64,000 bases of DNA from NCBI GenBank assembly GCA_002269645.1, contig NIVC01000382.1, positions 248,001 to 312,000 on the forward strand. The letters run 5' to 3'. The stretch is from Macrostomum lignano (lineage: Eukaryota). Positions 4,101 to 41,721 of this stretch are shown here, piece by piece. The notes below the pieces were generated by a model. The model had not been told where the DNA came from. It searched no databases and worked only from the letters and a program-made list of their open reading frames with translations. Within the stretch, counting starts at the first letter, position 1. Each line of letters begins with the position of its first letter. Both the position numbers and the translations under genes were made by a program.

Positions 4101-4848
4101 GAGTCACACTGCCCTGCTGCCAAGAGAACGCAGAAATGCAAATTCCTGGATTGTTAGACTCGACGCGATCGATATCAGCGACACTCACTGGCATGGAGAT
4201 TTCTGCAAAGTCCAGCTCACGCAACCATTCATCGTAAGAGGATATTCTGTTGGGCGATTTCTGAACTTTCGGATCGGCGCTGTGCAGTGCAGCGAGACAG
4301 GCGTACAGGAAACAGTCTTTGCCTGTGCTCGGTGGATTGATAACAGCCTTTTTGTTCTTCAAACTGGCAGGAAGATTGAATCTAACGGCTCTGCCCTGGC
4401 GAAATCGAATTGGATTGTACCTGGCAAGGTTGATGTCTAGAAAATTAATTTGTTTAATTGTCCAGCCACTGCCGTTCGTATTAATTATACTACAGATCCT
4501 CTCCAACTCCTGCTCCTGCTCAATCAACCAGTTGTTTAAACGGCCTGCTTCACCACCTAGGTCAAGGGCCTGCATTTTCTGCATTTTACAGCTTATCCAT
4601 CTGTCCTCTTCGGCAAGCATCTCCCCATCTCTTATTCGGACCATTCGAATATTCGCCTTTAGCTGAACTTTGTAATGATGTCTTGAAATTCTTTGCTGAA
4701 CTGTCTCAATAATTTTGTCTCCAGCTTGGACAAAAAATTCTGACGGAAGCGTGTCTGGGTGACTCGATCTGAGCCTCAGTATTTCCAGTGATTGATCATA
4801 GGCTTGGGCAACTCTGCTGAAGCTGACTGTTGAACCTGGTTTGTGGTT
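1188..4848 (-). pseudogene. Maverick/Polinton protein-primed DNA polymerase B (pPolB), split by frameshifts and a stop as assembled
   Basis: Pieces 2857-4644 (frame open from 4848), 2390-2965, ~1800-2390 and 1188-1802. Motifs: YADLE, endonuclease-VII-like CHYC..DHDHLNG..ACQEC, FHNLGGYD, FIDSLCF, KG(I)FPYDY, YLEMDV, IRGG, DMNNLYG, KNNSLF*KTMENVRKR, GDTDS, LRPKLYS, KGV, WEDKR..SLPYGHY. Confidence 0.93.
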
Positions 4849-6212: not shown

Positions 6213-6829
6213 GTGAGCTGATAGCAGACTCCTGCTGGCTCCCTTTTTCTGCTGGCTCTTCTTTTCTCTCTCTGCTCTTCTTGATGGCGCGGATTACTTT
6301 CCAGCGGTTACTTTCTTGCTTTTTCTTGTCATCGCTGACGATCCTGTGTCCTCGATGATATGCTGGAATTTTTTCCTCCTGCAGAGCTTCGACGGTGCCG
6401 CACTGGTCGCATGCCAACCAGCATGAGACCAGACAGTTCTCATTCTCGTGGTGTCTTGGGGACACGCCTCCAAGCAGGCACACTTCGCAGCTTATACAGA
6501 CCTCATTTCATTTTGAAAGAGAAAGAGTTGTTTTTTAGAAGTAGTAAGGTTTTTAAAAATCCTTTTATACAATTTGTTTTTGTCTATTTGTTTATTTGTA
6601 CTTGCGTGGCTGCTTATATAGTAATTTGTACATGCATGCCCTCTCCTTATCATATCGTATATGAACATCCAGCCATGCTCAGGTAATAATTACTGTACCG
6701 TTATAGAGGCCACCGGCTGTAATTAGTGTATTCCCCCCGTCCCTTATCCAGGTAAGCAACACCAGCCGTCCTCTGTGCAGTTGTAAAACTTTATAACCTT
6801 ACCCTAACACAGAGCACAGAGATTGGCCA

Positions 6830-13039: not shown

Positions 13040-13544
13040 TTTTAATTGGACAATTTTCACAACATTAAAATTTTGCAACACTTTTCCTCAATTTTTTGTA
13101 AATCTGTAAATAATGTAAATTTTAACGTTTTATGTGATTTAAACAGTGTATGCATGTTTAATACAACATTAGTATATTTTGAATAATATACATATGCTTT
13201 ACTCTATGACATTCAATACGCTGCAGTAGAGAAAATGCTCTTTCACATTAATATTTTTGTCATAATGTCCAGGTTAAAAGTTAAAAGTTAGTCGAGTCCA
13301 GGTTAAAATCCCCATTGAAATACATGTTTTGTGAACAAGTATGTAAGTTTTCGTCCACAGTGATTTAAAGCACGCAATATGGCGTAAATTTTTCGACAAC
13401 ATGCGTCAATTTTCATGCACAAGTTCGAGTGAAAATCCCTATTGAAATACATGTATTTTGTTTTCAAGCCAGGTCTTTGGCATAAGAAAATGATAGGTAC
13501 TATAAATTTGGAAAAATGATAAAAAGGCGATTTCCAACCTGCCA

Positions 13545-14130
13545 AGTATTTATCTTGACTGCAGGAGGCCGGGCAGCTATGGAGACTATCAGGCGTTAAA
13601 ACAAGAGTTGCACAAACAGCAAGGGCGCAAGTTTAGTGTAGCGCAGGTATGGATTTTTAATTCTACGATATACTTCTGGACCAAAGATTTTCTAAAAAAT
13701 TCCATCCTAGATTTGCCTCAGATTTATCCACTAGCTAGCTATTTCCAGTTTTCATATTACTTACAATTAAAGGTAATGACTTGGCTCAAAGACCAAGATG
13801 TCTACACACTGCATAGAGATAAACGCAAAAAACTTTCGTTTAGCACCAATTGTGGTGCGGGGCATGGATGACCCGTGGGAACTGGACCTGGTTGAAATGC
13901 TTCCATTCCGTTGAAATGCAATGGCGGCATGCGATACTTTCTTTGCTGTATTGATATGCTCAGCAAAATGGCCTAGGCTCAGCCAGTGCGCCGCAAAACA
14001 GCCGGAGAGGTTGCGGCAGGATTCAATGCAATTCTGAAAAATCTTTTTTTCAAAGGCAGAGAGTGGCGCACAATGAGCATAAATTGCACCTACATTGTGC
14101 TGTTCAACAACCCCAGAGACACCTTGGGCA
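13545..14130 (+). pseudogene. Maverick integrase N-terminal relic joined by deletion to a packaging-ATPase fragment
   Basis: YLDCRRPGSYG..QV/MTWLKDQDVYTLH..WELDLVEM..YFLCCIDMLSK..KTAGEVAAGFNAILKNL continues directly as FFKGREWRTMSINCTYIVLFNNPRD. The latter matches ATPase NLFAKGKEHRTQSLNANYLVLFRNVRD at 20905-21558. Confidence 0.8.
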
Positions 14131-14354
14131 GCCTTAAGTCAGCTGTAAATAGCATCAGTTTCGCTATCGCGTGCGCGTGAACTTATGTGTTTTATGTTCA
14201 GTGTACAATTGCCAGTGTACATTGCAAAATCAAATATAAAATATCTCGCTTGGCTTTAGCCACTTCGTGTTTTCTCGGACTAACTCAAACCTGCCCTTTG
14301 CTTAGTTTACATTGGTGGCAGCGGTCTCTAAATCAAGCCGGCTTACCCATGGCG

Positions 14355-17299: not shown

Positions 17300-18850
17300 G
17301 GTCGATTCTCCCTCACGTCTCTGCGCCTACACATGTGCTCTGCTCGCTTTGTTCTCTGTTTGTGTACCTCTCTGTAACGTCTCTGTACGCTCAGACTGGT
17401 TTCTCCGTCCCCGCACGCACCTCTACTAAAGTTTGCTGTTACCTACCCCTACACACTGCTCTCTGTCTCCCTCCGCGCACACCTCTCTGGCCTTGCATGC
17501 AACTTGCATGTCTGCTCCCCTGTCCTGCCCTCGCGTGGGTCCCTGTCTATACATGGCTACCGGACCCTACCTCTCTGTGCCTTGCACGGAACTCTGTCCC
17601 AGGCCCCTTCACACTTCTCTGTCCCGGGCTGCAACTGGCTACACGCGCCTCTGTTCCCCTGCCAGCGTGGCTGCCTACCCCTGCACACTGCTCTCTGTCC
17701 CTCCTATCCGCGCCTCTCTATCATCCTATTCCTGCAGCTGACCATGCCGTTCAGCTCTGTCCACGCACGGCTCCACCCCTGCCCGTGTCTCACTGTACCG
17801 CCCTGTGTGGCTCCCTTACCCTGCGCGTTTGCTTCCTATCTCCCTCCTGCTCCATATGTTTCTGTTCCCTCACACTACGCACGCGTGGCCTGCTCTCTGT
17901 CCATACACATCTCTGCTCCTCCACTCTATCCTCGCGTGGCCCCTTGACTGTTCGCATGCCCCTGCATACCCTGCCTGCCTCTCTGTCCCCTGCAACTGGG
18001 GAGGGAGCTCTCTATCCTCTGTACGGCTATCTCTGTGGGGGTGTGTGTGACTCACACTGTCTCTCTGTCCTAGCATGCGCCTCTCTATCCGGCTCCTGCA
18101 GCAGGCTGTGTTATTCACATCTCTTTCCACCCACCCTCTGCCCGTACACGCTCACTGTACAGGGCTGCGTCAGCATCGGGGTTAAAACTTCTCGCTCCCT
18201 ATGCTTCAACAGTATAACAACCTAGTGGCTGGTTCTCTGTCCGCCCCACCCCTCTCTGCCCGTACCCGCTCACTGTACAGGGCTGCGTCAGCATCAGGGT
18301 TAAAACTTCTCGCTCCCTATACCCCCAAACCGTGTAGTGGCCTAGTATGGGCGCGACCTGGGTTTGATTTCGCTAGTTGAGATGTGGGTGAGAGAGGGGA
18401 AGAGGCTAGGTGGGGGCAGGGCGTGAGGTATAGGGTGCCTGCGGGGTACGTATCGTTGACTAAATATCGGGAGAGTGTACACCTGTATTGGGCGAGTGTA
18501 CACCCATATCGGGAGAGTGGGAGAGTGTACTGGGGAGAGTGTACTGGGGAGAGTGTACCTTTGGCTCGGGAGAGTGTACACTCGGGGCGCCTGCGGCATG
18601 GGCGTCTGCGGCTCAGGAGGGTGCGCTTGGGATCTGATTGATTTGGGATCTGATTGATTTATTGGGATCTAATATCGGGAGGGTGCGCCTGCGGCGCTTG
18701 GCGCCACGCGCCTGCGGCGCGCGCGCGCCGAGCGCCGATATCGATACGGGTATCGATCACCTAGTGATCGGGGCGCCAGCCAATGAGAGGCGAGGAGGGT
18801 TGACACCCACCCCACCTCCAAAATCAACTGATCTACCGTTGCTTAGTAGT
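17300..18850. mobile_element. Right terminal region (TIR-like) of a Maverick (element A) whose left end lies outside the window
   Basis: Ends caaaatcaactgatctaccgttgcttagtagt (18850), 31/32 identical to the element B end at 30560. Shares gctcactgtacagggctgcgtcagcatc and gtgtacac motifs with the B TIR. Directly abuts Gypsy gag. Left boundary approximate. Confidence 0.8.
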
Positions 18851-19205: not shown

Positions 19206-20190
19206 GGACTGGTGACCGCGGGCCATCACCAGCCCTGCCTAGCAAGGCCCAAACCGCTTCCATCTTCCTTCTTCCTCCCTGTCCAGCTGGGGTCAACCAG
19301 GATCCCCATCTTCCCTGACAGGAGCCCCACGCCAGCCTGCCGAGTGATGCCCATCGCGGTGATTGCCAGAGTTGCCAGCACCGTGACCGTCCCTGCCCGC
19401 AGCCGTGTCATAATCCCGGTCAAGGTCCCATCGTCCGTCGAGCAGGGTCTGTTCGAGCCCAGCTCTGATTTCGTCGACAAGACGGGCCTGCTGCCGAACA
19501 GGGCGCTAGTGGTGTCCAGCGCTGATGGAAACCTGCCGGTGGGCGTCTGCAACCTGAGCGCCGACCCGGTAGTGCTCTACCAAAACCAGACAATCGGGAA
19601 CTTCGACTCTGCCGAACCTCATGGATCTGGCGAAGAACCTGATGAAGAGGTTGGCTTCAAAATCAACCCTGAGCTAAGTATGTCGCAACGCAAGCTAATC
19701 GAAGTCCTTCTCAGCAAGCACTAGAAAGCATTCGCCAGTAACGAGTTCGATCTGGGAACAACACACCTGCTGCAGCACGAGATCAACCTGGAGCCCGGCA
19801 GTCGCCCTATCACGCGCAGGCAGCGAACAATCCCGCTGAACTTCCGCCAGCAAGTGGATAACAAGATCAGTGAGATGCTGCGTCACGGAATCATCGAGCC
19901 ATCGTGCAGTCCATGGGCGAGCAACCTGCTCGTTGTTCGCAAGAAAAACAACGAGATCCGAATCTGCACCGACTGGAGAAGCCTCAACTCGTGCACCGTG
20001 AAGGACGCCTACCCGCTGCCTCCCCTGTCGGTTGCTCTAGACGTACTTACGGAATGCAGTTGGTTCAGCACACTCGATCTCCGCCAAGGGTTCCTGCAGG
20101 TCGAGCTACGTGAACAGGATCGAGAGAAGACCGCATTTTACTCAACGCAGGGCCTGATGCAGTACAGGAAGCTTGGATTCGGCCTCTGTA
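19206..20190 (+). pseudogene. pol: Gypsy element 1 pol, 5' part (protease core apparently deleted; RT N-half)
   Basis: SPWASNLLVVRKK..RICTDWRSLN..DAYPLP..FSTLDLRQGFLQV..KTAF..FGLCN. No DTG/DSG motif after LPVQLGSTRIPIF. One in-frame TAG at 19722-19724. Confidence 0.9.
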
Positions 20191-20823
20191 ACTACTAAGC
20201 AACGGTAGATCCGTTGATTTTGCGAAGGTCCGTCGGGCTGATGTCGGCCTCTAGCACCGCGGCAAGGTGCTCCCTCGGGGTGTACACCCGGGGTGTACCT
20301 CCAGCGGGGTGGGCGTCCAGCGAGTGTACCTCCAGCGGGGTGGGCCTCCTGCGAGTGTACATCCGGCAGGGTGGGCGTCCAGCGAGTGTACCTCCAGCGG
20401 GGTGGGCCTCCCTCGGGGTGTACATCCGGCGGGGGGGGGGATTCCCACTCGTGTGCACGCGGTTAGTGTTGGGGGAACCCTGATGCTGACGCAGCCCTGT
20501 ACAGTGAGCATGCAGCCCTGTAGCTGGGGACAGAGAGCAGCCCCTGTAGCAGGAGGGGTAGTGCGTGGAGAGCCGCCATCCCCCTGTAGCAGGGACAGAT
20601 AACAGGCGGCCCCCTGTAGCAGTATGAGGCGGGGTACAGAGAGACACGGGGTGCTGGGACAGAGAGTGCGTGGAGGCACCCTGCGCCGCCCCGGCATGTC
20701 GCAGCACGCGGCGTGGACAGAGAGGGAGTGTGAGTCACACGGAGGGACAGAGAGCTTCCCCAGGCCGGGGTGGTAGAGGGACAGACCGGCGGTGAGTGAT
20801 AGAGAGCCCCCAGGCTGCAGAGG
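20191..20823 (+). repeat. Left TIR of element B (633 bp)
   Basis: Reverse complement of 29988-30560 apart from a ~60-bp internal repeat-unit difference, a few 1-nt indels and rare substitutions. Confidence 0.95.
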
Positions 20824-20904
20824 AATTGAAAAGAAAAAACACGTAATTCAGTTGTTTCAGGTTCAGGCCATCCGGCAAACAGAGCAAAGCTCTCCAACAG
20901 TGTT

Positions 20905-21558
20905 TTATTTTGCATAAACTACGGGGTAGCGCCCCAACACATTAGCATAGTAGCGAACAGATGCGTTCTGCAAGCAATTAACAATCAAGTAGGAGTAGGG
21001 CTCCCTAGTGGCGTCTTCGTACATTTGAACAAAACTTTTTGGGTTAGCGGGGACAAGCTGCTTTGCAATATGGGCGACTGTACTAACGTCCCGTACATTG
21101 CGGAACAATACAAGGTAGTTTGCGTTAAGGGATTGAGTGCGGTGCTCCTTGCCCTTGGCAAACAGGTTTTGTACAAGGTACCAAAGCCGGAATCCCACAT
21201 GGCTGACTTTGCGAGTGAAAAATGCGGTAAAAGCAGCGTTTTTTTCCATGGCTTGCATTTGATCATCGACAACGAGTAGAATATTCGGAGCGGGAACATA
21301 GGTTTCAGGGTTAAATGTAGAGGAGCGAAAATTGACAGGGTACGGTAATTCAAACAGTTCCGGGTCTGGATAGTGCCCAAACCAATCAACGCGAACAGGC
21401 TTAGGGTCCTGAAAAAACTTGTTTCGCAGCAATTCTTCAACAAGAGTTGTTTTTCCGCTCTGGTTAACACCAGCAAAAATCGCCGAAGTATTTGGAGCAA
21501 ACTTTAGAGCGTCAGGATCAATTGTTTGGTACATTTTCAGGGCGAGTTGACACTCCAA
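20905..21558 (-). CDS. A32-like/FtsK-HerA DNA packaging ATPase
   Basis: Walker A GVNQSGKT, Walker B LLVVDD, RKVSH, QNLF, SLNANYLVLF, DAT.EPYSYL. Likely ATG at 21534. Confidence 0.93.
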   Translation of the reverse strand: MECQLALKMYQTIDPDALKFAPNTSAIFAGVNQSGKTTLVEELLRNKFFQDPKPVRVDWFGHYPDPELFELPYPVNFRSSTFNPETYVPAPNILLVVDDQMQAMEKNAAFTAFFTRKVSHVGFRLWYLVQNLFAKGKEHRTQSLNANYLVLFRNVRDVSTVAHIAKQLVPANPKSFVQMYEDATREPYSYLIVNCLQNASVRYYANVLGRYPVVYAK

Positions 21559-21568
21559 ATATTAAAAA

Positions 21569-22006
21569 CTATTTTATTTGTAGAACATGTTTTCGAACCA
21601 TCAAATCATTTTCAAGCAGATTGGTAGAGTAACATTCCCTTAAAATCTTTTCAATCGACAACCCCTCTAAAAAGTGCTTTTCGGCCACAAAAATCACATG
21701 CGGCCCACACGCTACACTTAGAGGGTGTTGAACAGGGTGGCGATTCATAGCAACAGGTGAATGTACATGCTTCGAGATCCAAGCCGAGAGCAATTCCGGC
21801 ACGGGTTCAATACACAGGGGGTCAAAAAATGTTACACTCTTATCATCGTGTAGGCAAATCAGTCCCCAGTGGGTGCCTGGCAGATTGCCCGTGTCAAAAT
21901 TAATTACATATGCAGCAGGGTAAACAGGTGCAGGAATTCTGTCGAGAGGGCAAACGCGCACTTCCACAGGTAGTTTTAAACGCTCCAAAATTTCCAACGT
22001 GTTCAT
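21569..22006 (-). CDS. Adenain-like cysteine maturation protease
   Basis: NFDTGNLPGTHW..FFDP..VQHPLSVACG, giving the His/Asp/Gln/Cys set of the adenoviral protease family. Confidence 0.92.
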   Translation of the reverse strand: MNTLEILERLKLPVEVRVCPLDRIPAPVYPAAYVINFDTGNLPGTHWGLICLHDDKSVTFFDPLCIEPVPELLSAWISKHVHSPVAMNRHPVQHPLSVACGPHVIFVAEKHFLEGLSIEKILRECYSTNLLENDLMVRKHVLQIK

Positions 22007-23283
22007 ACGTAGTCCAGAATGGGTTGGCGGCCTCTAGTGATTTGCACCGCGTTGTCAAAGTAACCAAACACCAAAACGTTAATCCCTGCAGGTAGGGCTG
22101 CAGAAAGCTTTATCTGTAGGGTCAGATTCCCTCTCTCGCGAGGCATGCTATGTCCACCCAGTTCCATATCGGGCATTAGATTCCACGCAAATAAGCAGTA
22201 ACCGGCGCGATAATCCGAATATGACAGGTCAATGTCCAAATCGCGATTCATTTTCCCTAGGCTCTTAAACAGCATGGCGTATTCGCGAGCATAGTTTTGG
22301 GCAGCGAACCTTGGAGTGAATGGTTGACCGCACAGACTGACACCGTCCTTGTACAGGGCCACACTGTCCGCCCCAAATGGCTCGAAATTGAACGGATTAT
22401 GGGTAGCCACCCCGTTATATGCGGCACTATTTACCATCCCCATAATGACAAGTTTAGGCTTCTGCTCCGGGAAAATATTATTGATTGATACGTCGCGAAC
22501 TCCTACAGCGACAGAGGTGTTGTGTACAACGAGGCGCTCGATGGGGTAGACTGCATTCTGTGTTGACAGCTGTTCTTCAATCTCCAAGGCCAGTTGGGGG
22601 TTAGCCTTTACCCGACGAACGTGTAATTTTGCACTTTGAAGAACCAACTTTGCATCAACCCCTTCGGCGTGATTCTCCACAACGAATCCAGAATTTTGCA
22701 GAGTGAGCGTAACCACCATATCAGTGTAGGGTAGCAGCATACGATCGTTGGTGACAAAAAAGTCGAGACTAAGAGGGCCATACAGATGAAATGTTCGAGA
22801 ACCGGCAGCCATCGCCTTGCGAGTTACAAAGCCAGGATTTCCAACCGCAGCCATTTGACCCCAGCGTCTTTAGCGTAGCCCATCATCCGCAGTTGGTTAG
22901 ACTTTGAATCAGACCCATAACTCAAGCATGTACGAATGTACGCCTTGTAGGCATGGTTGTTGTTGCTAGACTCGATATGTGTACCATTTATGGAAAGAGA
23001 CACGTTTTTGAACATGGTCTCCAAGAGGTAATTGATTGGCGCCACGTTTGAATCCGCCGCCAAATCGGCTCCATTAGCTCTTTTAATACAACCTTTAATC
23101 TCGAGATCAATGTCATTAAGATCGACAAACGTCTCGCCGCCCACAATTCTAAACTCGACCACACTCGCATTTTCGACGCTGGCAACCGGGTGTATTTCTT
23201 CAGTAGTTGAACCTACAGCGGCAATCTGGTGGCTCGAGGGGCAAAGAGCTCAAACTCGACTTTGTACACAGACACTCGGACAT
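22003..23283 (-). CDS. Double jelly-roll major capsid protein (Maverick PY type), three 1-nt frameshifts as assembled
   Basis: ATG at 23283, then CTKSSL/ELF..(Q)IA..EF.I.G..DL..LE.K..NNN.AYKAY; NPFNF; GY.LFAWNL.PD; GNL.L.I; terminal I...RQPILDY. Shifts near 23250, 23228 and 22860. Confidence 0.9.
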
Positions 23284-23312
23284 GTTTAGTAGACAGACTC
23301 GATTCGGCGAAT

Positions 23313-23657
23313 CTAATTGAAGCGGGGCTTTTTATTTATAGTGCTGAAAATGTCTGAATTGAGACGCTTCGGAGCCTTTTTTCTTCTTCGTCCGCTACCC
23401 CTTTGGGTAACCGTGTCTTTAAAGGCGTCCTTGGCAGCCTGAACAGAATTGCGCAGGACAGACTCTTTCAAATTGCCTCCTTGCTCGAGGCTATCGTTAA
23501 CAGTAGTTGCTAGGGCTCTAGTACCATGACGGAGAACGTTTTTACCAAAACTCTTTAGAATTGGCAGCGCGAAGCGGGCAATGCTTCCAAACAAACCGTT
23601 GCCCCTCTGGGCGCCCGCGAAAACAGGCAAAGCTCCTCCAATCAGAATAGAAGGCAT
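23313..23657 (-). CDS. Small Maverick virion/core protein with QRGxG motifs and an amphipathic helix
   Basis: FAGAQRGNGLFGSIARFALPILK...QRGSGRRRKK; sits between the minor and major capsid genes, as in Mavericks/adintoviruses. Confidence 0.75.
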   Translation of the reverse strand: MPSILIGGALPVFAGAQRGNGLFGSIARFALPILKSFGKNVLRHGTRALATTVNDSLEQGGNLKESVLRNSVQAAKDAFKDTVTQRGSGRRRKKAPKRLNSDIFSTINKKPRFN

Positions 23658-23700
23658 GATTAAGCACTAGGATTTAGTTTACTGAGGCTGTGCTGTTTAT

Positions 23701-24840
23701 TTATAGCTTCTTTTCGCGGATGTTAACGCTCAAGACGGTCTTGCCCCTCATTACTTTTGTCATATCCCTGCCCATATCATCGTTAATTTGTACTTCAATA
23801 GTTTTGAATGGGTGCTTAACCAACGGTAGATATGCTGGATTGACAAACTCGTAGTACTCGCGACCGCCCTGAACTTTGGGATCCATCGGTATAGCACCCA
23901 ACAGAGGAACTTTAACGTCTCCTACAATAACAGAATCGACTATGCTCGAATAGATGTACATTGTTTGTATTCCACCGGTTAATTCCATTGATGCGTTTGC
24001 GTAGAAATCCGATATACCGAAAAATGGGGTTGTATAATCATGCTCTGGGAAACCAAGCACGCTGGTCAAGCGCCCCAGCCCAAACATGTAATCCGTCGAG
24101 CCAATGTAATAACACCTATTCGTAACTTCGCTGTATCTGAAAAAGTCCGTTCTAGGTGCTGGAGCCGCTATGAGATCTTTGATATGTCTCCAAATTATAT
24201 CGTTGAGTTCCTCCACCAATCTTTTAGGTGTACTATAGTATCCTCCCTGCATAAAATAGATTTGATCAGACGCTGCACTAGTAACTTGTCTTATTATTGG
24301 AGCGTGGTCCATTGACTGTACAGTCGGTTCCTCAACAACTGCGGTGATGGAGGCTGCACACCCCGCGTGTAATACGAGTTCAGTAGGTAGATCCTCATTA
24401 GACTCGAAGCCGGCGACTAGTTTAAACACCTTGGGTAGGGCATCCGGGAATTTGATGCCGACGGTGGATTTTGAAGTATTCACAATCATAAAGGCGGTTG
24501 GGGATGTTCTTAAAAAGACAATTTTCTTATTATCCCCTTCAACGTATCGGATACCGTTTAGAAAGCCGGAAATACATTCTTCAGGGGTTTTCAGACCCGC
24601 TGCGAGACAAAGGCTTGCAAACGACGAAGCCGTCAAGAGGCCCTCCTGTTCGCGAATGGTGATCGGTATAGATTTTTTGAAAGATTCAAATTCTTTGGTA
24701 AAGTAGATCCGTTCGAGGCAAACCTCATGATTCGGAAAGTGGAGAGTGTCCGGTAAATTAATAAAATAATGAGCCGGATTATTTTCGGGATAGTGCTCGG
24801 GGCACGCATTGCTAGGCAGAAAGAGATGCATGGTAGCCAT
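23701..24840 (-). CDS. Minor capsid (penton, Maverick PX type) protein
   Basis: LFLPSN..YPENN..Y.INLP.TL..HEVCL.RI at the N-terminus. MYIYSSIV..VIVGD.KVPLL..F..P.Y.P..F.TIEVQI.DD.G..G.TV..V..R at the C-terminus. Confidence 0.88.
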   Translation of the reverse strand: MATMHLFLPSNACPEHYPENNPAHYFINLPDTLHFPNHEVCLERIYFTKEFESFKKSIPITIREQEGLLTASSFASLCLAAGLKTPEECISGFLNGIRYVEGDNKKIVFLRTSPTAFMIVNTSKSTVGIKFPDALPKVFKLVAGFESNEDLPTELVLHAGCAASITAVVEEPTVQSMDHAPIIRQVTSAASDQIYFMQGGYYSTPKRLVEELNDIIWRHIKDLIAAPAPRTDFFRYSEVTNRCYYIGSTDYMFGLGRLTSVLGFPEHDYTTPFFGISDFYANASMELTGGIQTMYIYSSIVDSVIVGDVKVPLLGAIPMDPKVQGGREYYEFVNPAYLPLVKHPFKTIEVQINDDMGRDMTKVMRGKTVLSVNIREKKL

Positions 24841-24843
24841 GCA

Positions 24844-25943
24844 TTAGTTATTATTACGTTGACGTATATTTATAACTTCATTTACAGGTACAAATGAATT
24901 AAAAGTGTCGGGATAACCGCGCCAGCTAACGTAATGGTGCGCAACACCATTTATTAACACGTTTCTACGCAAAACTTTATTGATTACAAAACGCTCGGGT
25001 CGGGTAGATTTGGACAGTTCATTGTAGTAAAACCGTCCCTCAATCACTTCACCAGACAAATCAGAAATACGATAAAAATGTGGGGGTCCAGGACAAACTT
25101 TGGATATAATGTACACCTCCTCACTATACATGTCGTACGCCTCCTTGTCGAATGCCCTGCGAGATTTCGAAATTCTCACAAAATCCCCCTTTTTATATAC
25201 GGGGTCGTCTTTTTGCTGATCCGGGTAGAGCTTTTCCCACACACGCTTCTGATTGTGGAACCCTACACTTGACGGTTTCATCTCAATAGTAGAATGCGTC
25301 GTGTTGTTGTAATTGCCTACCAAATTAGGTAAGTAGTCAACCCAACGCCACGTGTTGTTGTGCTCAAAGTAGCGAGCCAGACGCTTTCGAAGAGTTCTAA
25401 TCAGCCTCTCGGCCATGTTTGCCTTGTACACAGAGTTGGTGCTGTACATTTTAACATTATTGTCTTTTAGTATGCGGCGCATTCGCTGATTATAAAACTC
25501 GGTACCCCGATCCACGTGAAGGTAAAGGGGGGGGCAGGGAAATCATTCGCCAACATTGACTCAAACGCTGCGGGGGTATCACTCTTTAGTTTAATTGCCC
25601 TACAAAAAGCCTGCTTACTAAGCACATCAATAATAACTAGTATATATTTATGTCCGTCATTCCAACGTTTGTATCGCGACATGTCCATCAAATCGGCTTG
25701 TAGAGTTTCCATGAATCCTCCCGACATTACTTTTCCCGTTTTAAATGTCCTGTTGACTCTCCGGTGACGGGTGTAACTCGGTTGGGTTTCTAGCCATTCC
25801 CTGGTTTGGCGTCTTGTCAGGTTTGGCGCCAGACGTTTGGCCTCCTGATAGACACGGGCAGCATTTGAAAAAGCGGCGGCTCCTTGTTCGTAAACTCGAC
25901 GAAGAGCGGTTAGAGCCCTCATTGACAACAAGTGTGGATGCAC
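24844..25943 (-). CDS. Maverick retroviral-like DDE integrase with C-terminal chromodomain, one frameshift in a G8 run (25527-25534)
   Basis: WLETQPSYT.H, QADLMD, IIDVLSK, (YLHV)DRGTEF, AERLIRT, YN.T.HSTI.MKP, GDFVRIS, YSEEVY; chromo-like VSWRGYPDTFNSFVP. Confidence 0.93.
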
Positions 25944-26053
25944 AGCATGAATAGTTGCACGTAATGTCGGCTGGGGAGTTGTCTACACAAAGCTTTGACG
26001 CGGCGGCTGCTGCGCCCATGACCGCCGGGCGCGGTTATGTATGGATTAGGGTT

Positions 26054-26683
26054 CTATTTATAAAGAGTATCGTATTTTCGGTTCCGGGGTGGTCTTAGTT
26101 GGTAATCGTGATATTTACCCACCCCGGTACCTTGATCCACAAGTTTGGGCATAGCATTTACACCTTTGTTGCGCGTGGTCGTTAAATCGCGGGTGTCTGT
26201 CGCAATTGTGTGCTCATATTCATCGCGGTAATCGTCGGTACCAACCAAATGGTCAACCTTCTTTTCCTCCACAGGGAGCTGTTTCCGACCGAGCATAGAC
26301 ATTGGTATACGGGCCTTGTCTAGTAGAGCCCAGAAAGCGGTCGAATATTTCGGGTGATTATTAGTGTTGGTGGTGACGGCTTGTAGAAGATCAAAAACGT
26401 TGCTACCACCCCAAGTTTCACCATCAAAAACGACTTCCCACGATTGGTTGTAATTTAGGCTGGGGTGCTTTTCTGTTAGTATATTCCATATACGTTGTTG
26501 CCTATCAGAAAATAGCTGCTTTGTCGTCTTTTGGGGTTTTACTTTAGCCAATTGGGTCTGTAGCTTTGCATTGTACTCTACAAGTTTTTCGTACTCCGAT
26601 TTTGGGGCAATTTCTCGCGGAGTACCCTGTCTAAGCTGATTGAATTCCTCCTCGGGGACCACAACGTACTTGTCCATTTTCAA
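26054..26683 (-). CDS. Conserved Maverick structural-cluster protein (possibly PZ-like)
   Basis: KYVVVP..WEVVFDG..GSNVFDLL..F..L...IP pattern recalled from Maverick ORFs; located between integrase and the small GGFL protein. Confidence 0.6.
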   Translation of the reverse strand: MKMDKYVVVPEEEFNQLRQGTPREIAPKSEYEKLVEYNAKLQTQLAKVKPQKTTKQLFSDRQQRIWNILTEKHPSLNYNQSWEVVFDGETWGGSNVFDLLQAVTTNTNNHPKYSTAFWALLDKARIPMSMLGRKQLPVEEKKVDHLVGTDDYRDEYEHTIATDTRDLTTTRNKGVNAMPKLVDQGTGVGKYHDYQLRPPRNRKYDTLYK

Positions 26684-27069
26684 CGTCGTTGTCCTAGCAG
26701 ACCGCCAAACAGTCCAGTGATTAACGGAGCAGCAATCTTGGCGAGAATTGGTAGGAATCCTCCAACTTGAGGGTCCGATAGTATCATATTCTTCTTCCTA
26801 TTTATAGACAGTTTTTTGTCGGCCATGTCATGCAGGGCTTCTCTATAACGTTTCAACCTTGCAAACTGTCTAGGGGATAGATCGATATTGCCCTTGAGTA
26901 CATTGTGGCTTAACTCGCACAGACACTGCATCAACTCATTATCGGCTCCCCTAATAATGGCCCTCCTTCGATGTGGTCGCGCGTCACCGAGCTCCTCTAG
27001 CTCGCGACGGCAAGAACAAAGACGAGAAATTCCGTTTGTCATTATTAAGGTGGTAAGCATTGCGTGCAT
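26680..27069 (-). CDS. Small Maverick protein ending in QxGGFLP (reminiscent of adenovirus pX)
   Basis: R.AII..A..ELMQCLCE...NVLKGNI.L...L..YR..L..A.KK.S..RKK..I....QVGGFLPIL followed by an amphipathic tail. Confidence 0.75.
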   Translation of the reverse strand: MHAMLTTLIMTNGISRLCSCRRELEELGDARPHRRRAIIRGADNELMQCLCELSHNVLKGNIDLSPRQFARLKRYREALHDMADKKLSINRKKNMILSDPQVGGFLPILAKIAAPLITGLFGGLLGQRR

Positions 27070-27107
27070 ACATGTGCATATTTTGTTTATTTATAAGCAA
27101 AGCATAA

Positions 27108-27587
27108 TTAGAGTTGCAGAATAGCAGTCACGTGGTCGTACATTTTACACAGTTCGTCATAGTTTCGTATTCCTAGGAACACTAACCGACCATTCTTTCC
27201 GCACAGCAGGCACTTGGCCTTGCGGAATGGGGACTTTATTACAAGCCCATTGAATACCTCACTCTCCCACTCAACCCAGCGCGAGCTCGAGTTGGCAAGG
27301 CGGAAAAAGTTTGGCTTAACATTAACTTCTGCACGATAAGTACCGGTAGTGATAACAACAGAGTTTGGTTTACATTGAGCAAAAAGACGCAGCACATCGT
27401 TGGTTGATTGGCAACCAAAAACAATGGCAGATAATGAACGTTTGAAAAAGTTTATTGTACACTTTCCGATCCTCAGGTTGTACAATGCCCGGGGTCTATG
27501 AAACGTTCTAGCGCAAAACACCCTGTTTACGCACACGACGTTCTGCAAGCGGTTTTTTCGGTTGCTTTTGTTTCCGCTCAGCTCCAC
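27108..27587 (-). CDS. Highly divergent TBP-like protein inside element B
   Basis: RLQNVVC resembles TBP QLQNIVS. WESEVFNGLVIKSPFRKAKCLLCGKNGRLVFLGIRNYDEL resembles [31 protein letters not shown]..EEI. No ATG before the domain; overlaps the upstream ORF by 80 bp. Confidence 0.7.
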   Translation of the reverse strand: MELSGNKSNRKNRLQNVVCVNRVFCARTFHRPRALYNLRIGKCTINFFKRSLSAIVFGCQSTNDVLRLFAQCKPNSVVITTGTYRAEVNVKPNFFRLANSSSRWVEWESEVFNGLVIKSPFRKAKCLLCGKNGRLVFLGIRNYDELCKMYDHVTAILQL

Positions 27588-28149
27588 CAGCTCCGCGCTT
27601 GCGTCCTACCTTGATTTTTAACGGTGGAATCCAGTAGCAGCGGTCAAACGCCTGCTTGGGAGCTTCTATGAATTGCAGTTGTTGAATTTTTGGTACCGCG
27701 GTTAGAACCGAGTCGTGAATCACCGCCGTGTCTAGGGCGAACAGTACTCTATAGTAGCCCGTCTTGTTCTTGTAGTCGGTGCACAACTTGCCGCTCTTGT
27801 CGTACATTTTAAAGTCGTGAGCCAATCCGAATGCAGCGCTGTCGCAGCCAAAAGTGGGGTTGTACCCCAATAGCGCCATTCCTTGGATAGAGAGCTGGTG
27901 ACACACGGAATTAAACGCTTCTGGTATGCAGCTCTCCAAGTGCTTTTGGGAAAGAATGATGAATTCGCGGCCTTCATTGTCGGTTCTCACACCCTTGACA
28001 ATCAGTACGGGCGTCGCATTGGCAAGATAGAGAGGGCCCTGTTCGTCGTACTCAATGTCGTACGTCTCGGTTCCGTTGTAGCTTGGACCTCTCGACTTGA
28101 GAGAGAATAGGTCGATCCTAACACTATTGTAGTCTTGAACGGTATCCAT
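27508..28149 (-). CDS. Hypothetical protein (beta-rich, basic NLS-like tail; possibly OB-fold SSB)
   Basis: Intact ORF from ATG 28149, about 50 nt downstream of TATATAA (28198-28204). The fold is a guess only. Confidence 0.65.
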   Translation of the reverse strand: MDTVQDYNSVRIDLFSLKSRGPSYNGTETYDIEYDEQGPLYLANATPVLIVKGVRTDNEGREFIILSQKHLESCIPEAFNSVCHQLSIQGMALLGYNPTFGCDSAAFGLAHDFKMYDKSGKLCTDYKNKTGYYRVLFALDTAVIHDSVLTAVPKIQQLQFIEAPKQAFDRCYWIPPLKIKVGRKRGAGGAERKQKQPKKPLAERRVRKQGVLR

Positions 28150-28241
28150 GTTGCTGCTGCTGTTGCTGAGAGTGGGTCTCACACCCTGAGCGCCTCCTTA
28201 TATACCCTTGGGGCGGAGGGTGGGGTGGCTGGGCGTTTTTG

Positions 28242-28757
28242 TTATAGTGCTTCTTTAACGACACTTTCCGGTGTTGGAAATCCGGAAAAAATAAACCTTT
28301 TGTTTCGATCTTCTGGTCGAGTGGTTTGAGGCGTGTCGTTAATGCAGCTGCAGTGAGGGTTGATAGTCAACTTCGCTAGCACTGGTCTACTGTGTTTAGG
28401 TCGCCAAATCCTTTGGTGTTCCGTCCACGAGGGAGCAATCGGCTGGTGATTCCGGTACCGTATTTTCTCACGATGATCCTCTTGTAATATTGGGGCAATT
28501 ATCTGCTCCATTCTTTGAAGATTGGCTTTTAAATGCATCTTGTCTCTAAAGTAGTAGTCAATTCGGGCATCTGTATATTCTTGGGTGCTGTAAGGTCCTT
28601 GCCCAATTTCGTCTACCTCGACATTAAAGGTGACTAATCGTTCGGGAATTGGTTTGCCGTGACAAATGCATAACCAGTCTGTGGACTTTTTCAGGGTCTC
28701 GTACTCTGCCCTTTCTTTGCTCGATAAAAGCGGGTAGTCTCGAGAAATCCAGCTCAT
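28242..28757 (-). CDS. Hypothetical protein, 171 aa
   Basis: Intact ORF, ATGA overlap with the upstream ORF, co-oriented in the element B cluster. Confidence 0.65.
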   Translation of the reverse strand: MSWISRDYPLLSSKERAEYETLKKSTDWLCICHGKPIPERLVTFNVEVDEIGQGPYSTQEYTDARIDYYFRDKMHLKANLQRMEQIIAPILQEDHREKIRYRNHQPIAPSWTEHQRIWRPKHSRPVLAKLTINPHCSCINDTPQTTRPEDRNKRFIFSGFPTPESVVKEAL

Positions 28758-29131
28758 TCCTCTGACTCGTCAGATTCGTCGAGAAAGAAATAGTGGAAGA
28801 AATTGTCGACTCTATTCTTTTCAACTGCACAAAGTATTTTGTCTGACAGGTGAAATTCGCAGTCTCCTTTTACGTACAGGCGCTTCCCGTCGATAACTTT
28901 GATAGATGCGCCGCCTCCGAGATCGTAATCTGTGCAGCTAGTGCCCAGAAACTTCATTCGATGCCATTGTGCTCGACTAAACACGGCTCCTGGACAGCTA
29001 CAGTTTTGACAGTGGATGCGGAAACGCGGCTTGTTTGGGTCCCAATATCCCACTTCCAGCACTGCGTTGTCAACGTGGGTGTACACTATTTCCGATTGCC
29101 AGTACATTTCGATATTGTTGAGAAATACCAA
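28754..29131 (-). CDS. Probable PC4/Sub1-like ssDNA-binding protein
   Basis: PGAVFSRAQWHRMK..YDLGGGASIKV resembles PC4 PGxKGISLxxEQW and the relic at 41982-42521 (PGLTGMELTIYQF..LLGGNRQVVV). First ATG at 29107. Confidence 0.5.
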   Translation of the reverse strand: MVFLNNIEMYWQSEIVYTHVDNAVLEVGYWDPNKPRFRIHCQNCSCPGAVFSRAQWHRMKFLGTSCTDYDLGGGASIKVIDGKRLYVKGDCEFHLSDKILCAVEKNRVDNFFHYFFLDESDESEE

Positions 29132-29141
29132 TTTTATTTAT

Positions 29142-29939
29142 TTATAGGCTGCCGTCTGAACAGATTTCCAACCATTCCCTCCACTGTAGAACGGTTCTCT
29201 CAATTGATAAAAGTAAATACGCCGCTAGGAGCCCCCGGTTGCTGCTGCGCGCTTCGTAAAGACAGTTGAGATATGTGTCTCTATTTGCATACGCAAATGA
29301 TACGGGTTCTGGCAGAATCCGGTTGAGCAACTTTGATAATAACAACCTAGCAGTTCTACCATTGCCGTCGCTAAAGGGGTGTATGGTGAGAAACTTTTCT
29401 AGGAAATATGCTCCTGTCACTACTGCATTACGCAAGATTTGTGGCTCTTTTATGTCTCTAGTTAATTTTACCAGCTGCCGTTCGATATTTTCTGGGGCAC
29501 TGTAATACATACTCGCGCCTGCTGGCTTAGCGTGCTTAATTCTATACGATCCCGCATTCGGGAGCAGTCCTCTGCACACGCGTGTGTGAACTTGTCTAAC
29601 AAACTCTGTGTCAATTAACCCCCTCGTGTCATTGAGGTGTATTGCCGCACTCCATAGATTGGCTGTGACCATACAGGACCGGGTTTTTATCGCTTCTTCT
29701 GCTTCCTCCCAAGTCAACGCCACCTCTCTCTCCTCAATGTTTACTTCTGTTACGAATGCCAGCCGTGCTAGATGTGTGAATTCTAAGCGCTCCTTTGCGG
29801 TCAATCCCGCGATTCTTTTCCTAGTGTCTGATAACAATCTTTCAATGAGGGGTAATCTGGCGCGCACGCTCTCGTTGCTGAAATAGGGGTTATCAGTTAT
29901 ACCCTCTTCCATGTTCTCCATACAGAGGGTTTTGTACAC
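29142..29939 (-). CDS. Fic (Fido) domain protein
   Basis: Full motif HPFSDGNGRTAR (~29347-29382), plus VH..V..GL..AG.YR and N-terminal YKTLCMEN. First ATG at 29921. Confidence 0.92.
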   Translation of the reverse strand: MYKTLCMENMEEGITDNPYFSNESVRARLPLIERLLSDTRKRIAGLTAKERLEFTHLARLAFVTEVNIEEREVALTWEEAEEAIKTRSCMVTANLWSAAIHLNDTRGLIDTEFVRQVHTRVCRGLLPNAGSYRIKHAKPAGASMYYSAPENIERQLVKLTRDIKEPQILRNAVVTGAYFLEKFLTIHPFSDGNGRTARLLLSKLLNRILPEPVSFAYANRDTYLNCLYEARSSNRGLLAAYLLLSIERTVLQWREWLEICSDGSL

Positions 29940-29987
29940 TGCTTCTATTTATGGTTGAATTAACACGTTGCTCGCGGCCTGTCTGTC

Positions 29988-30560
29988 CCTCTGCAGCCTG
30001 GGGGACTCTCTATCACTCACCGCCGGTCTGTCCCTCTACCACCCCGGCCTGGGGAAGCTCTCTGTCCCTCCGTGTGACTCACACTCCCTCTCTGTCCACG
30101 CCGCGTGCTGCGACATGCCGGGGCGGCGCAGGGTGCCTCCACGCACTCTCTGTCCCAGCACCCCGTGTCTCTCTGTACCCCGCCTCATACTGCTACAGGG
30201 GGCCGCCTGTTATCTGTCCCCTGCTACAGGGGGATGGCGGCTCTCCACGCACTACCCCTCCTGCTACAGGGGCTGCTCTCTGTCCCCAGCTACAGGGCTG
30301 CATGCTCACTGTACAGGGCTGCGTCAGCATCGGGGTTCCCCCAACACTAACCGCGTGCACACGAGTGGGAATCCCCCCCCCCGCCGGATGTACACCCCGA
30401 GGGAGGCCCACCCCGCTGGAGGTACACTCGCTGGACGCCCACCCCGCTGGAGGTACACCCCGGGTGTACACCCCGAGGGAGCACCTTGCCGCGGTGCTAG
30501 AGGCCGACATCAGCCCGACGGACCTTCGCAAAATCAACGGATCTACCGTTGCTTAGTAGT
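29988..30560 (-). repeat. Right TIR of element B (573 bp)
   Basis: Inverted copy of 20191-20823. Confidence 0.95.
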
Positions 30561-30566
30561 TCTGTA

Positions 30567-40543: not shown

Positions 40544-41100
40544 ATGATTGTCATTGATTTTGAATGATTTTCGCACCTCTACAAAACAGAGGACTTTGGG
40601 GTCGTACTATAAAGCTGTCGTAGCGTAAGTTCGATCGTACGTCGGAACTTTTACACTGCGAAGATAAGAGCTAAGAACGATCTTATCTTACGATGGCTTT
40701 ATAGAACGGGCCCTTTGTGATTAAGGAAATTGCATGGGTTGACTTTGCATGTGTTCAAACGACGGTTCATTACTATTGCTACCGGCCGCCGCGCACCTTT
40801 GAGCTCTTTGATAGAGGACAACGACGAACGAACCTGCTACTGGCTTACCAATGAGCCTCCGGTCTAGACTGGGACTGAAGTGGGTTCCGAAACTACTCTT
40901 GTCTCTGGAGCGATATCTCTCACTTGCACAAGGCCTGATACTCAGTAAAGGGGATGTCAAGTGCCAGTTCCTATCGCGCCTGCTGTTCCAGCCTGTCCAC
41001 GACCTAGCATAGATGGCCTTTCCGAGTGCCTCAAAGTACGTGCTACCCTGCGCCCTGGCCAAGGTGGCGCTGTACGCTGATTGGCTACAAAAAGGGTCTA
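40544..41100 (+). pseudogene. Small Maverick-associated DEDD/DnaQ-like ORF relic, interrupted by a MITE
   Basis: After removing the MITE: MIVIDFE*F..EDFVIKEIA..HY.Y.PP..(C)YWL..LGLKW..SKG..K..FL..VHDL..CALAKV.LY.DWL. Matches from memory a recurrent Maverick ORF (DxxGF..FIxKELA..HGLxW..KG..CAL). Confidence 0.6.
40598..40713. mobile_element. 116-bp MITE (PIF/Harbinger-like)
   Basis: Imperfect ~26-bp TIRs ggggtcgtactataaagctgtcgt / acgatggctttatagaacgggccc with 3-bp TSD TTT. Excision restores the reading frame D-F-V-I-K-E. Confidence 0.75.
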
Positions 41101-41151: not shown

Positions 41152-41721
41152 ATGGTCGCAACAACAGGAGCCGATCTGGCGACCCGGGTGGCTCTGCCAC
41201 AACTAGCGAATTTCCTGACTCTTCATCTGCCTCAGTATCACTCAATCCGCCATCGCTTGGTTCATCCTCGAACACTGGCAGTGGTGATGAAGAGCGAGCA
41301 GCATCGAGTAACCGCGCTGGTGTATCCGACTGGACAAGTGTATGTCTGTGGAGCCAAAAGCATGGAGGAGGCTCTCGCAGAGACGGAGAAGATTGTGAAG
41401 CTGTGTGCGGACTTCTGGAAATTGACCTGTCTTCCCCAGATTCGCATCAAGACTATTACCTCTGTGACGACCTTTTTCGCGGGTCGCTATCCACTCCGGT
41501 TGAGGGAAGTCAAGTCTAAGTGGGGTACCTACGAGCCGAAAATGTTAAATGGGCTTGTGCTCGAGTTTACTGTCTCTGTAAAGTTGATTTTTGTTTCATT
41601 CATATCGCTGTATATAGCTGGTGCTCGCAGCGTGGTTGAGGCTCAGACTGCAGCTGATAACCTCTTCCGCATTTTGTATGCAGACCAAGCATCCGAGCCT
41701 ACTTTGCTGGACTCTGACTGA
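41152..41721 (+). CDS. Third TBP-like protein (Maverick relic C)
   Basis: RVTALVYPTGQVYVCGAKSMEEA; IRIKTITS; GTYEPKMLNGLV; LYIAGARS. Shares YPTGQ and RIKTIT with 33-605. Confidence 0.85.
   Translation: MVATTGADLATRVALPQLANFLTLHLPQYHSIRHRLVHPRTLAVVMKSEQHRVTALVYPTGQVYVCGAKSMEEALAETEKIVKLCADFWKLTCLPQIRIKTITSVTTFFAGRYPLRLREVKSKWGTYEPKMLNGLVLEFTVSVKLIFVSFISLYIAGARSVVEAQTAADNLFRILYADQASEPTLLDSD

Follow-up and report, generated by a model that had tools for sequence, protein, structure and literature searches.

A TATA-type octamer recurs ahead of the genes of a polymerase-less Polinton-like element in Macrostomum lignano

The window analysed here is a 64,000-nucleotide stretch of the Macrostomum lignano contig NIVC01000382.1 (positions 248,001 to 312,000, forward strand). 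It contains an integrated element, hereafter B (20191-30560), with inverted repeats of about 600 bp at both ends and a 6-bp target duplication, TCTGTA. All genes of B lie on one strand, and profiles from related Mavericks identified GasderminX-like, integrase, penton, core, hexon, protease and ATPase genes, while giving no match to pPolB between the terminal inverted repeats (TIRs). The stretch is present in 19 runs of one organism, of which four were examined, all as contigs; these jointly cover the interior of B and carry no large insertion, so that the absence of the polymerase looks like a family trait. Judged by its gene content, B is a polymerase-less Polinton-like variant with a Beta-type adintovirus virion module and not a complete member. 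An octamer, TATAAATA, recurs ahead of its genes and is the subject of this report.

In the 9,070-bp interior of B, TATAAATA occurs seven times on the coding strand and not once on the other, against an expectation of 0.17 under a Markov model of order 2 (P ~8e-10) or 0.78 under order 4 (P ~2e-5). It is the top-ranked 8-mer of the element (P ~5e-5 corrected for all 8-mers), and the other 53.6 kb of the window hold four copies where about two are expected. Six of the seven copies lie 25-65 nt before an annotated start (P ~2e-7). The initial annotation had listed six copies and three variants, all of which were found again at their coordinates on the minus (coding) strand; its list was incomplete, as a seventh copy (26799-26806) lies inside the GasderminX-like open reading frame (ORF). 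The opposite strand, which it had singled out for comparison, bears out the strand preference. Chance, or coding constraint acting through Leu/Ile-stop and Ile-Asn codons in A-rich junctions, is hardly credible as the origin of the motif: copy 26799 and the variant at 25645 do lie inside ORFs, away from starts, but the probabilities of count and position and the empty opposite strand stand against it. The positions and the enrichment of the box in B are thereby confirmed. The second-ranked non-overlapping 8-mer, AAATGTAC (six copies), was rejected, being not significant after correction and having only two copies at gene starts.

The features of B are, in order of coordinates:

20185-20190, plus strand: target-site duplication TCTGTA, left copy; B is inserted in a Gypsy reverse-transcriptase ORF
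20191-20811: left TIR, terminus ACTACT...
20904-20909, minus: AATAAA overlapping the ATPase stop; last poly(A) hexamer, without TATA
20905-21534, minus: packaging ATPase (profile from related Mavericks, E 4e-39)
21569-22006, minus: adenain-like protease, overlapping the stop of the major capsid protein (MCP); own box absent
21575-21582, minus: variant box TACAAATA, overlapping AATAAA at the protease end; 48 nt to the ATPase ATG
22003-23283, minus: MCP (hexon); frame breaks in the window copy
23313-23657, minus: core/cupiennin-like protein (profile E 5.5e-13; name from PMC8502044)
23333-23340, minus: TATAAATA with AATAAA, within the core ORF end; 57 nt to the MCP ATG
23698-23705, minus: TATAAATA forming the penton stop codon, with AATAAA; 48 nt to the core ATG
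23701-24840, minus: minor capsid protein, penton (profile E 6.7e-32)
24844-25922, minus: rve integrase; frame break in the window copy
24867-24874, minus: TATAAATA within the integrase ORF end, without AATAAA; 34 or 43 nt to the penton ATG
25645-25652, minus: second CATAAATA, inside the integrase ORF
25741-26019, minus: 92-codon ORF (starts MGAAAAAS), overlapping the integrase 5′ end in another frame; no Pfam match
26054-26677, minus: 207-aa ORF, unassigned, in the slot of a conserved gene between GasderminX and integrase
26055-26062, minus: TATAAATA running into the TAG stop of the 207-aa ORF; 43 nt to ATG 26019
26680-27069, minus: GasderminX-like protein (profile E 3.4e-22); in-frame ATGs at 27069, 27060 and 27042
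26799-26806, minus: seventh copy of TATAAATA, within the GasderminX-like ORF and 129 nt ahead of the 207-aa one
27088-27095, minus: TATAAATA with AATAAA, 12 nt past the TBP-like stop; 35 or 53 nt to the GasderminX ATG
27108-27542, minus: TBP-like domain, no in-frame ATG in front (Pfam PF00352, Atlas, fold of relative P0158)
27508-28149, minus: 213-aa ORF, probable gp2.5-type ssDNA-binding protein (SSB) with a basic tail (low confidence)
27543-27609, minus: predicted 67-nt phase-0 intron, AAG/GTAGGA ... TTGCAG/, which would join SSB-like residues 1-180 to the TBP-like domain
28197-28204, minus: box TATATAAG with upstream GC box and CACCC, putative promoter of the SSB/TBP unit; 55 nt to the ATG
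28242-28757, minus: 171-aa ORF, unassigned, overlapping the upstream stop; without a box
28754-29107, minus: 117-aa ORF, unassigned
29139-29146, minus: TATAAATA forming the Fic stop codon, with two AATAAA; 39 nt to ATG 29107
29142-29921, minus: Fic/DOC protein (Pfam PF02661, E 4e-14)
29946-29953, minus: variant box CATAAATA, just inside the TIR; 32 or 41 nt to the Fic ATG
30001-30560: right TIR, terminus ...AGTAGT
30561-30566, plus strand: target-site duplication TCTGTA, right copy

A box is found at all eight roomy junctions of B (gaps of 29-92 nt, plus TIR-to-Fic), with 32-57 nt from its first T, or 24-49 nt from the end of the motif, to the likely start; nearer ATGs lie 16 nt (box 27095) and 30 nt (box 24874) from the first T. 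The tight junctions number five: three are without a box, the one from GasderminX to the 207-aa ORF has nothing but the seventh copy, at 129 nt upstream, and at that from integrase to penton the box falls within the integrase ORF. The earlier description of the octamer as preceding genes holds at this spacing, with one correction: copy 26055-26062 precedes the 92-codon ORF, the integrase start (25922) being 140 nt off. That ORF, the first after the 26062 box, begins with a sequence that by eye is myristoylation-like. The degenerate form TATAWAWR has ten sites on the coding strand of B and none on the opposite one, the seven exact TATAAATA copies and TATATAAG fitting it. YAYAAATA likewise has ten coding-strand sites (that at 25645 inside the integrase ORF) and none opposite, and the canonical form is broken at only two of the nine gene-preceding or listed YAYAAATA sites. 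A poxvirus-type late promoter, in which TAAAT immediately precedes the ATG, was rejected as a misfit with the 32-57 nt spacing. In the pPolB-bearing element A, TATATAAG and then TACAAATA lie ahead of the first genes (6593-6620, minus strand).

Related Mavericks were compared with B using the best 80 of 494 confirmed MCP loci from a metagenome scan (594 matched) and one further locus, L005, the only Maverick among five loci from a separate scan, of which the other four were dropped. These 81 loci were reduced to 50 representatives at 90% MCP identity, with 29-36% MCP identity to the B family. A TATA box lies 30-75 nt before 43 of the 245 scored genes; the same count gives 5 of 245 for the other strand, and two flanking windows give 9 and 14 of 245. 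By gene, the box was seen before core (24/34), ATPase (8/20), GasderminX (6/28), integrase (1/23), penton (1/33), MCP (2/44), protease (1/39) and the gene after GasderminX (0/24). The 25 YCAKT words near the 43 sites all lie 29-34 nt downstream of the first T, the sequence in between being free, and the commonest TATA form is TATAAATA itself (11/34). The design of Pol II core promoters is described as TATAWAWR plus an initiator of TCAGTY type (PMC8302612), and by this comparison of motifs TATAAATA is a canonical Pol II TATA box. The promoter role put forward in the initial annotation is thus supported by position, by strand bias and by TATA-plus-initiator spacing in 50 related Maverick loci. 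A six-frame search of the 81 loci detected no TBP gene (best E 0.099; the profile finds cellular TBPs at E 1e-8 or better), and as TATAAATA is the commonest TATA form in these relatives, the motif needs no special reader. In the relatives (L005-L085) the MCP ATG follows the core stop without a TATA box. AATAAA was found near 35 of 262 gene ends, 26 of these at the protease gene, where the rate is 26 of 36; together with the missing MCP TATA this clustering suggests that core, MCP and protease form a unit on one promoter.

In B, AATAAA occurs 11 times on the coding strand and twice on the opposite one, lies within 30 nt of 6 of the 13 stops (P ~1.5e-4, simple binomial) and overlaps the box at 5 of 10 sites, vs. 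1 of 43 in the relatives. The octamer had been said often to double as the upstream stop codon and as an AATAAA signal; the former applies to three of the six listed copies (29146, 23705 and, in part, 26062) and not to the other three, the latter to four of the six (four of seven with the extra copy, P ~0.004) and not to the rest. Only the core and ATPase ends are followed by sequence with raised U/GU content (13 and 16 vs. a background of 9.6). The proposed poly(A) role therefore stands in part, with the hexamer enriched at gene ends and a U/GU-rich downstream element not evident at four of six, and for the AATAAA-overlapping boxes it is plausible.

From these overlaps it could be argued that the motif is mainly a 3′-end signal, a stop with an AATAAA or TATAAA hexamer, whose TATA look is a by-product, with starts elsewhere or long read-through RNAs. 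The flat cover across B in the contigs would agree with this, and contigs of three runs end at 20850-20870, just after the last AATAAA, which is a weak hint in the same direction. We consider this improbable, however: the Fic box has no gene upstream, three exact copies are without AATAAA, the ATPase end has AATAAA without TATA, and the relatives keep the two signals apart (one overlap among 43 sites; 26 of 35 gene-end hexamers at the protease) and have TATA with an initiator at a fixed distance.

The ORF at 27542-27108 was assigned to TBP by 19 of its 21 PDB matches, by Atlas (0.95) and by Pfam PF00352 (E 1.5e-4; 22.0 bits, just below the cut-off of 22.9, with 24.6 bits for P0160). Four relatives share 56-63% identity with it; one of these, P0158, gave a model (pLDDT 66) that matches TBP over its full length (Foldseek E 2e-6; Z 9.9, rmsd 8.3, 151 aligned). 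According to this model, B encodes a TBP-like domain with the two-repeat saddle fold. Repeat 1 of the window copy is about 13 codons shorter than in other copies and relatives. HMMER alignments, uncertain by a residue or two in repeat 1, indicate that two of the four intercalating phenylalanines are kept, and that one asparagine and both of the threonines that have a role in TBP are lost. An asparagine, invariant in the B family, replaces the proline after the third phenylalanine. Both acidic residues of the E-x-E stirrup, the TFIIB-contact glutamates, are also invariant in the family; the roles of the phenylalanine, asparagine, proline and glutamate residues are those given in PMC12529657. 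Two more TBP-like ORFs, at 33-605 and 41152-41721 (both plus strand; Pfam E 1e-24 and 2e-14), share 32% identity with each other and about 25% with the domain of B. The first adjoins a broken pPolB (1188-4848), the second is preceded by an AT-rich box, TATAAAAG, at 41099, and one 64-kb window thus holds three divergent TBP-like genes.

The TBP-like ORF, in the +1 frame, shares sequence with the end of the 213-aa ORF. Across the window protein and the four relatives, conservation stands at 58% as far as an invariant I-K/V, falls to 14% in the 18 residues that follow and is 65% from the start of the TBP frame; in the window these points read AAG/GTAGGA (27609) and TTGCAG/ (27543). The predicted 67-nt phase-0 intron between them would join residue 180 to the first TBP strand, and the SSB-like and TBP-like domains are probably joined by this conserved intron. 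In a relative at about 55-60% identity, two database proteins have a 45-residue overlap in this same +1 frame, where shuffling gives 5 at most, and TTGCAG is thereby forced at the corresponding position. All five keep the frame open across the intron, so the spliced and the unspliced form may both be in use; instead of splicing, initiation at a near-cognate TTG or frameshifting by +1 may serve. No spliced joint was found in the contigs of the four runs. An AATAAA at 27451-27456 (minus strand), about 50 nt past the SSB-like stop and inside the TBP-like frame, is followed by U/GU-rich sequence (18 vs. 9.6) and could end a short unspliced SSB mRNA. The 213-aa model itself is poor (pLDDT 40). Four of its eight structural matches are T7 gp2.5, ASFV CP312R, Enc34 SSB and DUF2815 (Z 2.5-3.3), with Z 3.3, rmsd 3.5 and 107 aligned for gp2.5, and the ORF is, with low confidence, a probable gp2.5-type SSB. 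Sequence comparison with Atlas, Pfam, PHROG and PDB gave no match, nor did a viral-structure search at E up to 0.001, and this ORF shows no resemblance to TBP.

Taking these results together, we lean with some reserve towards minimal Pol II promoters that are read by the host, with the TBP of the element as a modulator. In this reading, whose start sites, 3′ ends, splicing and box reader we infer, TATAAATA would be the TATA box of minimal Pol II core promoters, one per transcription unit, in a tightly packed Polinton. The spacing suggests initiation about 30 nt after the first T, with leaders some 2-27 nt long. A gene with no gap to the upstream stop, either overlapping or adjoining it (the 171-aa ORF, the protease, perhaps the 207-aa ORF), would be carried on the upstream mRNA. 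Five junctions appear to have the upstream gene's poly(A) hexamer merged into the box (TATAAATAAA), which would bring the upstream 3′ end and the downstream start almost to the same point. By default the boxes would be read by host TBP/TFIID. The TBP-like domain, probably in the form of an SSB-TBP fusion made by splicing, would have a host-type promoter of its own (TATATAAG of the SSB/TBP unit differs in its core and, alone among ten sites, has a GC box within the 80 nt before it), and would modulate the box promoters as a co-factor or as a decoy for TBP partners. Since its TFIIB-contact surface is kept and only half of the DNA-bending residues remain, the domain most likely modulates promoters and does not define them. 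The suggestion in the initial annotation that the element's own TBP-like factor reads the boxes survives insofar as B encodes such a factor; its role as reader is doubtful, the motif being canonical and the commonest TATA form in relatives without a detectable TBP gene and the DNA-binding face of the protein being partly lost.

Several results weigh against the host-read promoters. The AAATA core is invariant at nine sites while the box of the TBP gene differs, which a host reader does not demand, and YCAKT initiators are seen at none of the 10 sites in B vs. 25 of 43 in the relatives (Fisher p 0.0008; the hosts differ). B has penton and MCP boxes, which are nearly absent in the relatives. Those relatives are also not independent, 68 clustered loci joining at 70% MCP identity, and many of the loci are incomplete, so a TBP gene could sit outside the contigs. 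At four of six gene-end hexamers the downstream U/GU content is at background (8-10 vs. 9.6). Finally, the contigs of the four runs, which carry no information on start, end, strand or level, give flat cover over B, with poly(A) loose ends absent.

Some of the same observations would be expected if the YAYAAATA boxes were late promoters read by the element TBP in a herpes-like switch. Host factors would then drive the SSB/TBP unit through TATATAAG and the GC box, the spliced SSB-TBP fusion would bind replicating element DNA, and it would recruit TFIIB and Pol II to the boxes, turning on capsid, integrase and packaging genes much as herpesvirus TBP mimics do at TATT. A TBP-fold domain is indeed encoded by B, and its promoter alone among the ten sites has a different core and a GC box. 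The ten YAYAAATA sites are restricted to the coding strand with AAATA invariant, while positions 1 and 3 vary; the TBP proline that favours T at position 1 (PMC12529657) is the one replaced by the invariant asparagine. The invariant acidic residues of the stirrup, the penton and MCP boxes that set B apart from its relatives, and the SSB/TBP overlap with its acceptor TTGCAG, kept in the relative at about 55-60% identity, point the same way. On the other hand, the box is a perfect TATAWAWR, vs. TATT in herpesviruses, a non-canonical box for which a viral TBP is needed (PMC4893493), two phenylalanines are missing from the TBP-like protein, the splice is absent from the contigs of the four runs and partner activators were not recognised in B. 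The uniformity of the box (TATAAATA at 7 of 10 sites in B vs. 11 of 34 in the relatives) is not significant when variants are included (p 0.06, or up to 0.12). We therefore regard the late switch as possible but doubtful. A fuller version is rather unlikely: a host-driven, alternatively spliced early unit whose retained intron yields SSB with a basic tail, and whose spliced form yields an SSB-TBP fusion coupling replicating DNA to TFIIB/Pol II at YAYAAATA boxes that are also the upstream poly(A) signals.

The absence of pPolB between the TIRs, and of any large insertion in the run contigs, also raises the question of help in trans, the box being then the promoter of a helper virus, as in virophages as well as Polinton-like viruses (PLVs). 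Precedents are the TCTA motif of mavirus/EMALE (PMC8547959) and AAAATTGA of PgVV (10.1101/2022.07.28.501842). Yet motif and spacing are of host Pol II type and common to polymerase-bearing Mavericks, the pPolB-bearing Maverick in the same window (1188-4848) could supply replication, and the spliceosomal intron, provided it is real, would place transcription in the nucleus with Pol II; we find a helper-virus promoter very improbable. TATA plus initiator before core, ATPase and GasderminX of many distant Mavericks likewise supports host Pol II transcription without a helper virus.

Maverick termini are AGT-first. Those of B (20191-20196 and 30555-30560) read in the opposite sense, 5′-ACTACT...AGTAGT-3′, which is possibly linked to the absence of the protein-primed polymerase. 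A second terminus matching the TIR end of B (31/32 nt) lies at 18819-18850 in the same Gypsy region, 1.3 kb from B, with further TIR pieces at 18045-18301; it may reflect a target preference of the B family. Integrase and ATPase remnants were seen at 13500-14180. The frame breaks of the B integrase and MCP are not in the contigs of the four other runs, whose lengths differ nearby, and may be assembly errors or private to the window copy. The MCP has 11,433 relatives at E up to 0.001; no close relatives of B were found in scans of viral contigs, and the phage collection gave no MCP match.

Promoter motifs have been described for protist virophages and PLVs (PMC8547959, 10.1101/2022.07.28.501842, 10.64898/2026.07.28.741278). 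We found no literature on promoters or transcription of animal Mavericks, Polintons or adintoviruses, in a search that covered the subscription literature thinly and judged most titles by listing, and no paper with the TCAKTY initiator wording. The word "promoter" is absent from the available main text of PMC8502044, and the available text of its supplement does not mention TBP, TATA, SSB or spliced; its genome-map figures may show adintovirus TBP genes, and the legend of its Fig. 5 refers to TBP-like genes in some MELD viruses. The main text of the 2026 PLV survey mentions neither TBP nor promoter (10.64898/2026.06.19.733378). The result is a concrete promoter map for one Polinton family. Should the boxes be read by the element TBP, an integrating element of 10 kb would have a late switch of herpes type; otherwise the box is a TATA box of the usual kind, and what is of interest is the odd TBP together with the compact overlap of TATA and poly(A) signals.

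Compared with known systems, B resembles adintoviruses, Mavericks and Polintons (PMC8502044) in its TIRs, target duplication, rve integrase, hexon, penton, adenain, ATPase, GasderminX and cupiennin-like protein, and differs from adintoviruses in being without pPolB and having the overlapping SSB-like/TBP-like gene pair. With Pol II TATA-plus-initiator promoters it shares an exact consensus fit of TATAAATA and a spacing that suits a start about 30 nt downstream, the relatives having YCAKT at 29-34 nt; unlike them, the box of B is near-invariant, often lies in the upstream ORF or stop, overlaps AATAAA at five sites and is without YCAKT. Virophage and PLV promoters (PMC8547959, 10.1101/2022.07.28.501842) are similar in that one short AT-rich motif precedes many same-strand genes of a small integrating DNA virus, but they copy a giant-virus promoter, whereas the box of B copies the host consensus and a helper virus is not known. 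The vTBPs of beta- and gammaherpesviruses (BcRF1, ORF24, UL87) offer a virus-encoded TBP fold, minimal late-type promoters and a separate host-type promoter for the factor gene (PMC4893493, PMC12529657). Their boxes are non-canonical (PMC4893493), in contrast to that of B, and the multi-protein activator complex of the herpesvirus late system was not recognised in B. The KSHV mimic needs all four of its phenylalanines and is without the TFIIB glutamates (PMC12529657). On both of these points the B protein is the opposite, so that a modulator engaging TFIIB is favoured over a reader that acts alone.

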